Shown: positions 6,287-9,662 of the stretch, piece after piece
Layout: every line of letters begins with the position of its first letter
How positions within the stretch are numbered: position 1 is the first letter of the stretch
Assembly (NCBI GenBank): GCA_937967615.1
Contig: CALCMJ010000149.1
Coordinates: 1-23,386, forward strand
Direction: 5' to 3'
DNA length: 23,386 nucleotides
Origin: an uncultured Saprospiraceae bacterium
GTDB taxonomy: Bacteria > Bacteroidota > Bacteroidia > Chitinophagales > Saprospiraceae
Notes under the pieces: generated by a model
Databases searched by the model: none
What the model was told of the DNA's origin: nothing
The model's input: the letters and a program-made list of their open reading frames with translations, nothing else
Translations under genes and position numbers: made by a program

Positions 6287-6318
6287 CTACGCATATTAAT
6301 TGCGTAGTTGTATTTCAT
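6287..6318. promoter_or_regulatory. Palindromic operator-like site (CTACGCA-N7-TGCGTAG followed by TTGTATTTCAT) in the WYL/rtcB divergent intergenic region. It is a candidate WYL-regulator binding site and rtcB promoter region.
   Basis: Perfect 7-bp inverted repeat with a 7-nt AT spacer, 30-50 nt upstream of the rtcB ATG. A near-identical copy occurs at 9630-9662. Confidence 0.45.
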
Positions 6319-6339
6319 CTTTGAATAAAATTTAGAGAA

Positions 6340-7707
6340 ATGAAAATAACAGGTAAAGATTTAATAGCAATGGGATATCGTCAGGGCAAGTGGTTTAAGG
6401 AAACTTTGATTAAAGCCAATGCCCAAAGGTTGACCGGCGATGAATTAAAAGCATTCTTAGATGAAGCTGCTCCTACTATTATTGATCCCCATGATGAATC
6501 CGTGAGCTACCATCTCAACATTCGCGCTGAGAATGAAGAAGAGGAGGCCAATGTAGCTGCCGTGAAGAATAATATGATAGGCCTCATGAAAACACCAACA
6601 GTAATAAATGGTGCAGTTATGCCTGATGCATGTCCAACAGGTTCTAATGGACAAATTCCAGTAGGCGGTATTGTTGTGACCAAGGATGCTATCCACCCTT
6701 CTATGCACAGTGCTGATGTTTGTTGTTCTGTTATGATGACCTCATTTGGAATGGTGGACCCAAAGAAGGTATTGGACTGCGCGCAGGGCGTTACTCACTT
6801 TGGTGGTGGCGGTAGAGAAGATTTATTTGATTTCCCTACAGAGTTAGAGGATAAGATAAAGTCAAACTATTATTTAAAAAGTAAACGTTCGCTCAATCTT
6901 GCAAAAACGCATTTAGGAACTCAGGGGGATGGAAATCATTTCCTTTATGTAGGCCAATCTGAGGAAACCGGTGAGACAATCATGGTGACGCATCATGGAA
7001 GTAGAGGATTTGGTGCAAACCTTTATAAAAATGGGATGAAAACTGCAGAGAACTTCAGGAAAGAAATTTCTCCTAAAACGTTGAAAAACAATGCCTGGAT
7101 TCCATACTCGCACAGACAAGGCAAAGAATATTGGGAGGCATTACAGATTGTGAGAGCGTGGACAAAATTAAATCACGAAGTGATTCATCAAGCCACTTGT
7201 GAGAAGTTGCATATAGATCCGCATGATCGTTTTTGGAACGAACACAACTTTGTGTTCAAAGATGGCGACGAATTTTATCATGCTAAAGGTGCAACTCCAT
7301 TAGATGATAAATTTGTTCCTGATTCCAAAGATGGATTAAGACTGGTTCCTTTAAACATGAGCGAACCAATTCTTGTGGTGAAGGGTGAGACAACTGAGAA
7401 TAATCTTGGTTTTGCTCCACATGGTGCTGGGAGAGATATTAGTAGATCAGCCCATATCAGAAAAAATGTGGGTAGAACTATTACTGAGATCTTTATGGAA
7501 GAGACGCAGGGAATAGATGCAAGATTCTACTCAGGGCATATTGATATCTCTGAACTTCCTTCTGCATATAAAAATGCTCAAAACGTTCAGGATCAAATGA
7601 AAGAATTTGGTTTAGGCGAAGTTGTAGATAAGATTTTACCCTATGGATGTATAATGGCAGGTGATTGGCAAATAGATGCGCCTTGGAGAAATCGAAGAAA
7701 ACGTTAA
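6340..7707 (+). CDS. rtcB: RNA-splicing ligase RtcB (3'-phosphate/5'-OH RNA ligase) with an about-45-aa N-terminal extension. The extension resembles the C-terminal RNA-binding domain of CCA-adding enzymes.
   Basis: Alignable to E. coli RtcB by eye. AVMPDACPTGSNGQIPVGG corresponds to AVMPDVHLGKGSTIGSV. HLGTQGDGNHFLYV...THHGSRGFG corresponds to HLGTLGTGNHFIEI...LHSGSRGIG. APHGAGRDISRS corresponds to CSHGAGRVMSR. C-terminal SELPSAYKN corresponds to DEIPMAYKD. The N-terminal MKITGKDLIAMGYRQGKWFKETLIKANAQRLTGDELKAFL matches the ITGxDLIxxGxxPGxxxGxxL pattern of the C-terminal domain of tRNA nucleotidyltransferase. Confidence 0.85.
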   Translation: MKITGKDLIAMGYRQGKWFKETLIKANAQRLTGDELKAFLDEAAPTIIDPHDESVSYHLNIRAENEEEEANVAAVKNNMIGLMKTPTVINGAVMPDACPTGSNGQIPVGGIVVTKDAIHPSMHSADVCCSVMMTSFGMVDPKKVLDCAQGVTHFGGGGREDLFDFPTELEDKIKSNYYLKSKRSLNLAKTHLGTQGDGNHFLYVGQSEETGETIMVTHHGSRGFGANLYKNGMKTAENFRKEISPKTLKNNAWIPYSHRQGKEYWEALQIVRAWTKLNHEVIHQATCEKLHIDPHDRFWNEHNFVFKDGDEFYHAKGATPLDDKFVPDSKDGLRLVPLNMSEPILVVKGETTENNLGFAPHGAGRDISRSAHIRKNVGRTITEIFMEETQGIDARFYSGHIDISELPSAYKNAQNVQDQMKEFGLGEVVDKILPYGCIMAGDWQIDAPWRNRRKR

Positions 7708-7719
7708 CTTTGCATCATC

Positions 7720-7836
7720 ATGAGAAAAGTGATCATACATAGAATATTAGAAAAATTGACAAATCCAGATTTTACAGGATTTGAGCAACTGAGTATTCAG
7801 GAACGCTGTCAAGCTATGCATGTCATTTATTGAGTA
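7720..7836 (+). CDS. Possible small ORF (38 aa, MRKVIIHRILEKLTNPDFTGFEQLSIQERCQAMHVIY) directly downstream of rtcB. Hypothetical.
   Basis: An ATG lies 13 nt after the rtcB stop. The ORF is followed by a strong intrinsic terminator at 7862-7899. No recognisable motif. The ORF is below the ORF-track length cutoff. Confidence 0.2.
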
Positions 7837-7861
7837 GAATAAATCACTAAGAATATAGACT

Positions 7862-7899
7862 AAAAAGCGTTCAAATAATTTTGAACGCTTTTTTTTTTG
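7862..7899 (+). terminator. Rho-independent terminator ending the rtcB transcription unit.
   Basis: Perfect 10-bp stem AGCGTTCAAA / TTTGAACGCT with a TAAT loop, followed by a run of 9-10 T. Confidence 0.7.
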
Positions 7900-8141
7900 A
7901 TTAATTTTTTAACAAACTATGCGCTATAAATAAACGGACATAAAAACAACATTGAAGTATAAACAATTGGGAGACAGACTATTGAATTAATTCACATTTA
8001 GCTACGAAAATGGCATAGAATAGCTATTGCCTTATATTCACATAACTAATTGATAATCAATTAATTAAATCATATTTTTATTTTGTTTTTTATAAATTTA
8101 AAATATACATTTGCGTTCTCAATTAGAGAAAATAAACAGAT

Positions 8142-8291
8142 ATGACATTTAGAAATACACATACAAACAGATTAGAAGCTTTGAGCCTCCAAAGGCAGCT
8201 GCATGTTACTCCATTGGAACCAGGAGCTGATCTATGTATAGACCAAGTTTTGATAATTGGAAACAGAGAATATATATTCTATATGATGTAA
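8142..8291 (+). CDS. Possible small ORF (49 aa, MTFRNTHTNRLEALSLQRQLHVTPLEPGADLCIDQVLIIGNREYIFYMM), or an untranslated small RNA.
   Basis: The ORF follows an AT-rich promoter-like region and is closed by its own strong terminator at 8314-8353. No recognisable family. Confidence 0.2.
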   Translation: MTFRNTHTNRLEALSLQRQLHVTPLEPGADLCIDQVLIIGNREYIFYMM

Positions 8292-8313
8292 GAACTATTT
8301 CATACAGGATTTT

Positions 8314-8353
8314 AAAAAGCATCTCTCTGGTTCCAGAGAGATGCTTTTTTTTT
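8314..8353 (+). terminator. Rho-independent terminator immediately upstream of the tRNA array.
   Basis: 12-bp perfect stem GCATCTCTCTGG / CCAGAGAGATGC followed by 9 T. It is preceded by an A5 run, so it could also act on the opposite strand. Confidence 0.7.
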
Positions 8354-8362
8354 GGACATAAT

Positions 8363-8671: not shown

Positions 8672-8693
8672 CATGTACATACAATATATAAAT

Positions 8694-8774
8694 GCGGGGA
8701 TGGTGGAATGGTTTACACAGCGGTTTTAGAAACCGTACTCTTTTGAGTTGAGAGTTCGAATCTCTCTCCCCGTA
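8694..8774 (+). tRNA. tRNA-Leu (anticodon TAG), class II with a long variable arm.
   Basis: Acceptor GCGGGGA/TCCCCGT. Anticodon stem GCGGT/ACCGT with loop TTTAGAA. The 13-nt variable arm ACTCTTTTGAGTT forms its own hairpin. T arm GAGAG-TTCGAAT-CTCTC. Discriminator A73, the major Leu identity element. Confidence 0.7.
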
Positions 8775-8779
8775 CGAAT

Positions 8780-8853
8780 ACCCTACTAGCCCAACTGGAA
8801 GAGGCATGGGAATTAAAATCCCAAGAGTCTAGGTTCGAATCCTAGGTAGGGTA
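8780..8853 (+). tRNA. Class-I (short variable arm) tRNA with anticodon TAA. This is Leu by anticodon but not Leu-like in architecture. Isotype is undetermined and it may be a tRNA-like element.
   Basis: Perfect acceptor ACCCTAC/GTAGGGT. D stem GCC/GGC with GG in the loop. Perfect anticodon stem TGGGA/TCCCA with loop ATTAAAA (U33, anticodon UAA, A37). 5-nt variable loop. T arm CTAGG-TTCGAAT-CCTAG. It starts 5 nt after the preceding tRNA. Confidence 0.45.
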
Positions 8854-8986
8854 CTATTATTTAACTTTTAAAAATTTACATATGACAGAAAACACAGAAA
8901 TGAATTACAAGAATTAAAAGAGAAGAGGCTGACAGCAATTTGCAGCAGTGCTCATCTCAATTTTTAAAATTATTAAACATTAAAAA

Positions 8987-9499
8987 ATGAGCATTACACT
9001 CGCAGATCAATACTATCTAAAGGCGAATGATTATTATCCATATAATATGGAGAGTACGATTGAGAATCTGGGATATGCATTATCGTATCAAGATGATCAC
9101 GCTGCTGCAAATTGCTTGATGGGCCAAATCTATATGTACCATATGAAAGATTATGGTCAAGCTGGATTCTATTTTTATAGGGCCTTAGAAGGGAATATAA
9201 ATTTTCCCGACACCTATAAACACTATGGACTGCTAAGAATTTGGGAGGCAGAATATTGCAGAGCTAAGAAGATCATCAACAGAGGTCTTAAAGTAAAAGG
9301 CATGGACCAGTCCTCGCTTTTTGCACTCATCGCAATGATCCATGAATACAAGGGAGAATATCCTGAAGCCAAGCTAGTATTGAAAAAAGTCAAACTTTTC
9401 ATCACAGACGAAGAGAAACTCGTACAGGTCAAAAGAGATCTGAATAGAGTGAAGAAAAAGATGAAAGCGTTTAAGCCGATGATGAAAACTGGCAACTAA
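8987..9499 (+). CDS. Hypothetical 170-aa protein, possibly TPR-like and helical.
   Basis: Clean ORF with ATG preceded by an A-rich region. Tyr/Ala-rich helical repeats. A hairpin plus T-run terminator follows at 9500-9524. No confident family assignment. Confidence 0.55.
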   Translation: MSITLADQYYLKANDYYPYNMESTIENLGYALSYQDDHAAANCLMGQIYMYHMKDYGQAGFYFYRALEGNINFPDTYKHYGLLRIWEAEYCRAKKIINRGLKVKGMDQSSLFALIAMIHEYKGEYPEAKLVLKKVKLFITDEEKLVQVKRDLNRVKKKMKAFKPMMKTGN

Positions 9500-9524
9500 G
9501 AGAAAAGTAAAATTTTCTCTTTTA
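9500..9524 (+). terminator. Intrinsic terminator after the 170-aa ORF.
   Basis: GAGAAAA-gtaaaa-TTTTCTC hairpin followed by TTTTAC. Confidence 0.45.
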
Positions 9525-9525
9525 C

Positions 9526-9598
9526 GGTGATTTTAGTTTAACAGGTAAAATACCTCTCTGTGAAAGAGGAGAACAGAGTTCGAGTCTCGAAATCACCC
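9526..9598 (+). tRNA. tRNA-His-like (anticodon GTG). It lacks an encoded G-1 and has only a 3-bp T stem, so it is possibly a pseudogene.
   Basis: Acceptor GGTGATT/AATCACC is perfect. Anticodon stem CCTCT/AGAGG with loop CTGTGAA. T loop TTCGAGT, but the stem CAGAG/CTCGA pairs only 3 of 5. Discriminator C73 is consistent with His, but position -1 is C, not G. Confidence 0.4.
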
Positions 9599-9629
9599 TT
9601 TTATTCAAAAATAAAATAAAAATATTACT

Positions 9630-9662
9630 TACGCAATATGATTGCGTAGTTGTGATTTAATT
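9630..9662. promoter_or_regulatory. Second copy of the palindromic operator-like motif (TACGCAAT-ATG-ATTGCGTAG followed by TTGTGATTTAAT).
   Basis: It shares the exact 13-mer ATTGCGTAGTTGT and the overall palindrome architecture with 6287-6318. It lies between the tRNA-His-like gene and the tRNA fragment cluster. Confidence 0.4.

Follow-up and report, generated by a model that had tools for sequence, protein, structure and literature searches.

Paired probable operator–promoter elements in a Saprospiraceae contig and a putative WYL-controlled RNA-repair regulon of Bacteroidota

The stretch of DNA analysed here, 23,386 nucleotides of contig CALCMJ010000149.1 from an uncultured Saprospiraceae bacterium (assembly GCA_937967615.1; hereafter the window), carries two near-identical palindromes about 3.3 kb apart. 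Site 1 lies between the divergent genes of a WYL-domain regulator and of the RNA ligase RtcB, and site 2 follows a tRNA-His gene and precedes a region with tRNA-like sequences and a gene of the SPFH family. The locus raises the question of what these palindromes are, which protein they serve and what they switch. A previous sequence-only reading proposed that they are operators of the WYL protein and define a small regulon, rtcB plus a downstream transcript. The comparative sequence evidence presented below supports and extends this proposal: the two sites are probably operators fused to promoters in a Bacteroidota RNA-repair regulon under a DriD-like WYL activator.

Palindromic sites and their promoter geometry

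Site 1 reads CTACGCATATTAATTGCGTAG at positions 6287–6307 (CTACGCA-TATTAAT-TGCGTAG) and site 2 reads TTACGCAATATGATTGCGTAG at 9629–9649 (TTACGCA-ATATGAT-TGCGTAG). The exact 13-mer ATTGCGTAGTTGT is common to both (6299–6311 and 9641–9653) and consists of the promoter-proximal half-site and the conserved flank G-T-(A/T)-G. The positions, the shared 13-mer and the gene context given in the sequence-only reading (the WYL/WCX regulator, RtcB, tRNA-His and SPFH genes, Table 1) were confirmed. The pattern TACGCA-N7-TGCGTA was detected exactly twice in the window, at 6288–6306 and 9630–9648, with a chance expectation of 0. When the spacer was relaxed to 3–12 nt, the same two sites were the only matches, each with N7, and no match was obtained in 100 dinucleotide-preserving shuffles.

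A 28-nt weight matrix, derived from 115 sites of related loci, was also applied to the window. Exactly two strong sites were found, with 31.0 bits at 6283–6310 and 28.7 bits at 9625–9652, both on the minus strand, like the WYL gene. The next position of the window unrelated to them had a negative score, and the shuffled loci gave a single match of 14 bits and none above 16. A weaker related sequence at 17711–17733, which had been listed as a possible third site, was rejected, as it scored −20 bits and its right half-site is broken.

To describe the surroundings of the palindrome, 135 sites were aligned by their cores, in the direction leading away from the WYL gene. The box nAnnTTTG stood 9 bp beyond the core, at +28 to +35 counted from its first base, with A29 in 112, T33 in 134, T34 in 130 and G35 in 90 of the 135 sites. 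The box is followed by an A-rich stretch, A being the commonest base at +40, and in about 130 sites the distance between operator and box is constant to within 1 bp. The sequence TAnnTTTG is the −7 box of the Bacteroidetes sigma-A promoters and occupies −12 to −5, with the −33 element TTTG about 19 bp upstream (PMC9723704). With the box placed at −12 to −5, the start of transcription is predicted at +40, which puts the 19-bp core at −40 to −22 and its dyad near −31. The −33 TTTG is absent from the rtcB/RNA side of the 135 sites, and an invariant AAAA stands in its place. The inverted repeat of the sequence-only reading is thus real but incomplete as a description, as the element combines an operator with a promoter, both the geometry and the orientation being fixed. 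Both window sites are followed by such a box (Table 1), and that of site 2 stands in the same register as that of site 1 and as the 135-site profile. A scan of 7650–10400 with a sigma-70 promoter model found 9 promoters where 11 were expected; the model is wrong for this phylum and its output was not used.

On the regulator side, the 67 sites with a gene in that direction show TTTG in the operator centre and, after 19 nt, TAnnTTT(G). In the related loci this arrangement, as read from sequence, would be a canonical −33/−7 promoter with its −33 element inside the operator. The window copy is a weaker match, with TATG, a 16-nt spacer and then TATGTTTT, and the WYL promoter assigned to it is tentative. 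The operator centre itself (+6 to +14; 6294–6300 and 9636–9642 in the window) is strongly asymmetric and reads AAAATnATT on the rtcB side.

Conservation of the motif, its gene set and its presumed regulator

For the comparison, 80 genomic loci around close relatives of the WYL protein were used, selected by this protein only. The relatives were 58–79% identical to it and belonged to Saprospiraceae, Flavobacteriaceae, Fluviicola, Kordia, Crocinitomix and others. The exact core TACGCA-N7-TGCGTA was present in many of the 80 loci, typically 27–45 nt before the WYL start codon, and in nearly all of them when one or two mismatches were allowed. The N7 spacer was invariant in all 115 seed sites, and the conservation of the half-sites was about 1.9 bits per position in the 115-site matrix. 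The consensus is a conserved 23-bp palindrome, AC-TRCGCA-AAATNAT-TGCGYA-GT; read toward the WYL gene it is ACT[AG]CGCAAT-n-ATTTTGCG[TC]AGT, with an asymmetric, T-rich centre. Altogether 136 sites of at least 20 bits were detected in 79 of the 80 loci (Saprospiraceae, Flavobacteriaceae, Fluviicola, Kordia and others), and 131 of 134 sites had the same orientation as the WYL gene. The conservation in related genomes, proposed earlier as a check, was found in all but one of these Bacteroidota loci.

The motif stands directly upstream of the WYL gene, or of an operon formed by the partner gene c2 and the WYL gene, in 70 of the 80 loci. The next gene on the regulator side was WYL at 57 sites and a c2 gene preceding WYL at 17 sites, and the position of site 1 is conserved in 57–61 related loci. 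On the opposite side, RtcB was the next gene at 61 sites. Other genes found there encode a T4-Rnl1-like RNA ligase, Hen1, the nucleotidyltransferase RlaP and TROVE/Ro60 (Rsr), and further ones a HAD phosphatase, a DUF2828-vWA protein, an RNase T-like exonuclease and small uncharacterised proteins; SPFH is also among the predicted targets downstream of the motif. At 34 sites without an open reading frame (ORF) on the opposite side, the motif is followed by non-coding DNA in which T-loop and D-arm motifs of tRNAs are frequent.

The reverse test was made by scanning metagenome contigs for the motif alone, without any gene criterion, which gave 127 matches. A recognisable part of the same gene set adjoined 116 of them (91%). 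WYL or c2-WYL was located divergently upstream in 90 of the 127; RtcB, Rsr, RlaP, Rnl, the phosphatase, c12 or SPFH was located downstream in 81, and a T-loop-containing RNA in 46. Most of the few unassociated matches were in G+C-rich sequence that lacks the promoter box or on short contigs. Among 2.9 million viral contigs (IMG/VR) the sole exact match was that in L201 (439–459), which has neither the −7 box nor genes of the regulon and is probably due to chance. Since nine-tenths of the motif-first matches lie beside the gene set, the motif is a marker of the RNA-repair regulon and not a generic repeat, so that the possibility of a common genome-wide repeat, raised with the sequence-only reading, was excluded. 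Judged by these comparisons, the sites appear to be real binding-site-plus-promoter units conserved across the phylum Bacteroidota.

The regulator is a protein of the winged helix-turn-helix (wHTH)-WYL-WCX type. No AAA+ or CARF match was obtained by Pfam in its 337 residues. A direct search of its sequence against solved structures gave no match; the profile of 22 homologues placed DriD chains best (E ~5e-8), followed by PafC, BrxR and CapW. The AlphaFold model consists of an N-terminal helical/winged domain, helices, and beta-rich WYL and WCX domains. In Foldseek the full-length DriD came first (E = 4e-14), followed by PafBC (1e-12), BrxR (4e-8) and CapW (8e-8). By both the profile search and Foldseek, the closest solved relative of the regulator is DriD, with a sequence identity of about 15%.

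Further genes and RNA elements were noticed in the related loci. The protein c2 (204 aa), with the HD-like motifs HYHNLKH and FYHDFVY, is the commonest regulator-side gene product in the Flavobacterium-like genomes; it is usually paired as c2-WYL (L077 at 9171 and 16 other sites in 15 loci) and occurs also in many metagenome loci, L083, L086 and L092 among them. Pfam and NCBIfam assigned no family to c2, c4 (594 aa) or c12 and gave a single very weak match for c21. In the leader before c4, which appears from its sequence to be operator-driven, a T-arm-like hairpin is surrounded by three copies of AGGAAGTTCCTAT...ACTTCC (L011 ~8170–8440, L028 ~7870–8150, L029 and L044, on the minus strand of these loci). 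The Rfam Flavo-1 RNA motif was found in L078 at 9876–9972, immediately upstream of WYL and between c2 and WYL, and a second time in L048 at 18135–18210, elsewhere in that locus.

Downstream transcript, rtcB and tRNA array

Table 1. Features of the window around the two sites
Feature	Position	Strand	Description
WYL regulator	5238–6251	−	wHTH-WYL-WCX, 337 aa; Pfam WYL 8e-11, WCX 1.7e-13; presumed operator binder
Tentative WYL promoter	6268–6295	−	−33-like TATG 6292–6295; −7-like TATGTTTT 6268–6275
Operator site 1	6286–6308		AC-TACGCA-TATTAAT-TGCGTA-GT, palindrome of 23 bp; lies in the 88 bp that separate WYL from rtcB
−7 box, predicted rtcB promoter	6316–6323	+	CATCTTTG; predicted start ~6328
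rtcB	6340–7707	+	RNA 3'-phosphate ligase family, 455 aa; Pfam RtcB 2.5e-32, residues 180–438; predicted site 1 target
Terminator-like hairpin	7862–7893	+	14-bp stem and T run; likely end of the rtcB unit
tRNA array	8363–8854	+	Asp, Glu, Gln, Leu-TAG, Leu-TAA; ARAGORN, Rfam
ORF170	8987–9499	+	170 aa; inside the tRNA array
tRNA-His	9526–9598	+	ARAGORN, Rfam
Operator site 2	9628–9650		CT-TACGCA-ATATGAT-TGCGTA-GT, 31 nt after tRNA-His
−7 box, predicted structured-RNA promoter	9658–9665	+	TAATTTTA; predicted start ~9670
Structured non-coding RNA or long leader	9670–10298	+	~630 nt, up to the SPFH start codon
Permuted tRNA-like (YrlA-like) module 1	9840–9907	+	Rfam YrlA and consensus fold
Parts of module 1			outer stem 9840–9844/9903–9907, T arm 9850–9866, closed acceptor-like stem 9867–9882, D arm 9885–9901
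tRNA-like module 2	9916–9985	+	T arm 9916–9932, short closed stem, D arm, anticodon-like arm 9969–9985 with loop CTCTTAA
SPFH/Band-7 protein	10299–11399	+	366 aa; Pfam Band_7 8e-28

The RNA between 9668 and the SPFH start codon (631 nt) has a minimum free energy of −176 kcal/mol, z = −5.5 relative to shuffles. Homologous modular RNAs stand between an operator and the SPFH gene in L022, L036, L040, L042, L048 and L079. With relaxed Rfam thresholds, module 1 matched YrlA (RF02553) at 9842–9905 with 41.7 bits and E = 3e-7, below the gathering score of 69; module 2 gave 27.6 bits for YrlA at 9915–9967 (E = 4e-3) and 34.5 bits for tRNA at 9944–10001. At the gathering thresholds, only tRNAs were reported in the window, and in seven related loci no YrlA was reported but only tRNAs and two Flavo-1 RNAs. 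Five of these tRNA matches are intron-like, 114–126 nt long, and lie inside operator-driven RNAs, that is, in tRNA-like RNAs with the anticodon arm replaced by a long insert.

The consensus fold of the seven-sequence alignment comprised 31 pairs, of which 19 had compensatory changes, and the sequence of the closed acceptor stem was different in every genome of the alignment. A strict pattern search of the sequences analysed yielded 29 permuted modules; an operator was located within 900 nt upstream on the same strand in 24 and downstream in one. The count of 29 is that of a strict regular expression and may differ from the true total. The predicted layout of the modules is that of a circularly permuted tRNA of the YrlA type, not of two tRNA genes and not of attachment-site (att) debris. 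Of the transcript that the sequence-only reading placed after site 2, the structured RNA before SPFH was retained, while its "tRNA fragments" are better described, by the Rfam matches and the covariation, as permuted tRNA-like modules.

Orthologues of the SPFH protein with 43–50% identity follow the same RNA in six related loci, and more distant partial matches (25–32% identity) were found in L040 and L079. SPFH was also located about 600–850 nt downstream of the operator in 9 metagenome contigs. The terminator scan gave no plus-strand terminator between the structured RNA and SPFH, so the RNA may be a long leader or may be processed from a common transcript, and SPFH is probably co-transcribed with it. 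A short conserved element of the type TTCCG ... GATGRGTTAT ... TGCGG was noticed just upstream of the SPFH start codon (~10210–10260 in the window), at the 3' end of the RNA, and also in the distant genomes L022, L040, L042, L048 and L079; it may represent an SPFH-specific leader element. At other loci of the regulon, operators stand before rsr as well as between rsr and tRNA-like RNAs. A Ro60-binding helix was not identified with confidence in the structured RNA.

The RtcB of the window scored below the NCBIfam RtcB-family cut-offs, and far below the equivalog ones, which assigns it to a divergent subfamily. In about 50 loci, orthologues of it (55–87% identity) are encoded divergently from WYL. 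The 650 nt that separate rtcB from the array (7708–8362) contain no long ORF; they carry very A+T-rich DNA, two strong terminator-like hairpins (that listed in Table 1 and one at 8314–8349) and a short ORF of about 50 codons from 8143, read from the sequence and not called by a tool.

No operator was found in front of the tRNA array of the window (8363–9598), and the arrays of the other loci likewise have none of their own. The order rtcB, tRNA array, operator, structured RNA recurs in many loci, and the operator stands directly after the last tRNA of an array in at least 7 others. About 25 of the 80 loci, from different classes, carry an array of 3–13 tRNA genes on the strand of rtcB and downstream of it (L006, L012, L023, L028, L030, L035, L036, L042, L049, L051, L052, L057, L061, L065, L066, L071 and L079 among them). 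The recurrent tRNAs are Ser, Cys, Tyr, Pro, Gln, Leu, Glu, Asp, His, Phe, Arg, Lys and Asn. ORF170 has weak TPR-like matches, and its homologues, 32–43% identical, occur in 12 related loci, again near arrays. The Y-like RNAs could have arisen from tandem tRNAs, or the arrays could belong functionally to the island.

Proposed mechanism, alternatives and comparison with known systems

In the mechanism that we favour, the 337-aa regulator, presumably as a homodimer, would bind the 23-bp palindrome AC-TRCGCA-N7-TGCGYA-GT. On the plus-strand side the operator near −31 would occupy the place of the missing −33 element, and by analogy with DriD the ligand-bound regulator would recruit RNA polymerase to otherwise weak promoters. 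Site 1 would switch on rtcB, and site 2 the tRNA-mimicking, Y-RNA-like transcript of about 630 nt that runs into SPFH. On the regulator side the TTTG of the operator centre may act as a −33 element, so that binding would feed back on the synthesis of the regulator itself. Activation is favoured because the published properties of DriD match the anatomy of the operator.

The most likely signal would be a single-stranded nucleic acid that binds to the WYL domain. Since the regulon is one of RNA repair, broken RNA (tRNA fragments, for example) is an attractive ligand; single-stranded DNA, as for DriD, PafBC and CapW, is equally possible. The more specific proposal that the WYL domain senses broken RNA (e.g., tRNA halves) and not single-stranded DNA, and that the tRNA-mimic RNAs, repair enzymes and tRNA arrays form one inducible island, is tentative and, in our opinion, rather doubtful. 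If it were true, the regulator would be a convergent, sigma-A-dependent counterpart of the CARF regulator RtcR, and the island would detect and counter tRNA-targeting nucleases. Its members would be the operator-driven tRNA-mimic RNAs, RtcB, Rnl, Hen1, RlaP, the phosphatase, Ro60 and the syntenic tRNA arrays, and the tRNA-like RNAs would serve as decoys, sensors or Ro60 adaptors.

The same operator and regulator may also work in the opposite direction, with the WYL protein bound at −40 to −22 as a repressor that blocks RNA polymerase until a ligand relieves the repression. CapW and BrxR, significant structural matches of the regulator (E ~1e-7 to 1e-8), are wHTH-WYL-WCX repressors that bind palindromes at the promoters of divergent operons, and CapW is described as a repressor sensing single-stranded DNA (PMC11662680). 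In the present system the operator overlaps both predicted divergent promoters. Against this stand the activators DriD and PafBC, which are the closest by profile and fold and surpass BrxR and CapW by about 6 orders of magnitude, as well as the half-site and N7 spacing, which resemble the DriD box. The rigid phasing to the −7 box together with the absent −33 element is a trait of the DriD promoters, needed by an activator and not by a repressor. Repression, the main alternative, is on balance unlikely. A number of points nevertheless weigh against the activator-operator reading favoured here. The relatedness to CapW and BrxR is one of them; polymerase occlusion would agree with this geometry as well, and many Bacteroidetes promoters can do without a −33 element. 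Sites that lack a gene on the regulator side have an equally conserved asymmetric centre, for which the embedded −33 TTTG does not fully account. The predicted rtcB leader, 12 A-rich nucleotides before the ATG, is short, and the −7 box of site 2 has a final A in the place of G, a rarity among the aligned sites (3 of 135). The regulator model is moderately confident (predicted local distance difference test, pLDDT, 73; predicted template-modelling score, pTM, 0.33), the domains being confident and their mutual arrangement not. The link between regulator and motif is drawn from their co-occurrence and the resemblance to the DriD box. Finally, no RtcA was found by Pfam among the ORFs of the window, the related loci not having been searched for it, and no TROVE (Rsr) gene was found by Pfam in the window, nor any within 4 kb of the module.

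The identity of the binding protein and the nature of site 2 leave room for other explanations. That the palindrome is bound by a factor other than the neighbouring WYL protein, for example a regulator encoded elsewhere, would agree with the 37 of the 127 motif-first matches without a WYL or c2 gene within 1.5 kb and with the extra sites kilobases away from the WYL gene. Distant sites are expected of a regulon, however, and WYL is the only consistently adjacent regulator (in the 70 loci and the 90 unbiased matches mentioned above); the motif was found in all but one of the loci selected by the WYL protein, and the architecture of the box is that of the closest solved WYL regulator, which makes another factor quite improbable. 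We judge it slightly more improbable still that site 2 is the intrinsic terminator of the tRNA array or tRNA-His transcript and that its likeness to site 1 is incidental or secondary. The terminator scan did flag 9629–9649 with its T-rich tail, the RNA hairpin of 9599–9670 is moderately stable (−13.3 kcal/mol, z = −2.3), and in several loci the operator directly follows the last tRNA of the array. Yet the same 23-bp sequence with a −7 box 9 bp downstream is present at about 250 places, mostly divergent promoters with nothing to terminate, the stem has 3 G-C pairs only, the tail is interrupted (TTGTGATTTA), and the half-site conservation is typical of a protein-binding site and not of a hairpin. 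A secondary role of site 2 in ending the array transcript is possible. The short distance from the tRNA-His gene and the partial tRNA-like sequences that follow could finally suggest the ends of a mobile element or att remnants, the "tRNA fragments" being duplicated att pieces. This explanation was rejected and its probability is negligible: the window contains no integrase or transposase, the permuted modules have compensatory changes across 7 distant genomes, the motif is tied to the promoter box and RNA-repair genes across the phylum, and the viral contigs gave one match, without the box.

To our knowledge, the sensing of RNA damage and the switching of RNA repair in bacteria are known in molecular detail only for RtcR in enterobacteria. 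Neither a WYL-controlled RNA-repair regulon nor this operator nor these RNAs were found described for Bacteroidota in the searchable literature, which did not cover Burroughs & Aravind 2016 (NAR 44:8525). The regulon proposed here would be a second, unrelated control system for the same RNA-repair enzymes, phylum-wide. The 23-bp operator with its −7 box is a sharp DNA signature by which whole regulons can be read from genome sequence. One switch would link RtcB, Ro60, Hen1, the T4-type RNA ligase, RlaP, c2, c4, c12, c21, SPFH and the tRNA-mimicking RNAs, which gives functional hypotheses for all the linked proteins and RNAs. A tractable test of RNA sensing by the WYL domain is offered by Flavobacterium johnsoniae. 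The mode of activation of DriD, in which the activator replaces the −35 element, would be extended to the unusual promoter type of the Bacteroidetes.

DriD is the activator of the SOS-independent DNA-damage response of Caulobacter crescentus. The pseudo-palindrome that it recognises is ATACGAC-N7-GTCGTAT; in every DriD promoter the site is equally far from the −10 element and overlaps the position of the absent −35 element, and activation proceeds mainly through recruitment of RNA polymerase (PMC13004042). One of the sites is in a bidirectional promoter shared with driD, where DriD activates the divergent operon (PMC13004042). The present regulator has the same domain order and DriD as its best match by structure and profile. 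Its presumed operator, (C)TACGCA-N7-TGCGTA(G), likewise has half-sites of 6–7 nt that start with TACG and are separated by N7, the bases being different after TACG. The distance to the equivalent of the −10 box is likewise fixed and the equivalent of the absent −35 element overlapped, the starts being predicted here, and a site is again present in a bidirectional promoter with the regulator's own gene. In contrast to DriD, the regulator belongs to another phylum and another promoter type (Bacteroidetes sigma-A, −7/−33) and is only distantly similar in sequence; its operator centre is strongly asymmetric and oriented, and the targets are RNA-repair genes and structured RNAs instead of the DNA-damage genes didA, bapE, recJ and dnaG.

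PafBC, a mycobacterial activator, and CapW/BrxR belong to the same wHTH-WYL-WCX fold family, have a nucleic-acid ligand and have sites at or beside the core promoter. PafBC differs in being a heterodimer that needs RNA polymerase to bind a half-palindromic motif, and CapW/BrxR repress defence operons; all three are weaker matches than DriD. The structured RNA is similar to YrlA in its T arm, loop-closed acceptor-like stem and D arm from the outer helix, the arrangement of a circularly permuted tRNA mimic. It differs from YrlA in its score below the gathering threshold and in having two tandem modules in an RNA of about 630 nt that continues into SPFH.

With the RtcR-controlled rsr-yrlBA-rtcBA and rtcBA operons of Salmonella and E. 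coli, the locus shares a presumed ligand-sensing regulator divergent from rtcB, and elsewhere in the regulon Ro60/Rsr and tRNA-like Y RNAs appear to be under the same control as RtcB. The signal for RNA repair in Salmonella is damaged tRNA (PMC7790460). The regulators are different: a WYL protein at sigma-A-type promoters stands here in the place of a CARF-domain, sigma-54 enhancer-binding protein, and the genes form scattered single units, each with its own operator, instead of one operon. The system is thus DriD-like in its operator architecture, promoter geometry and fold, RtcR-like in its biological role, and a member of neither regulon.

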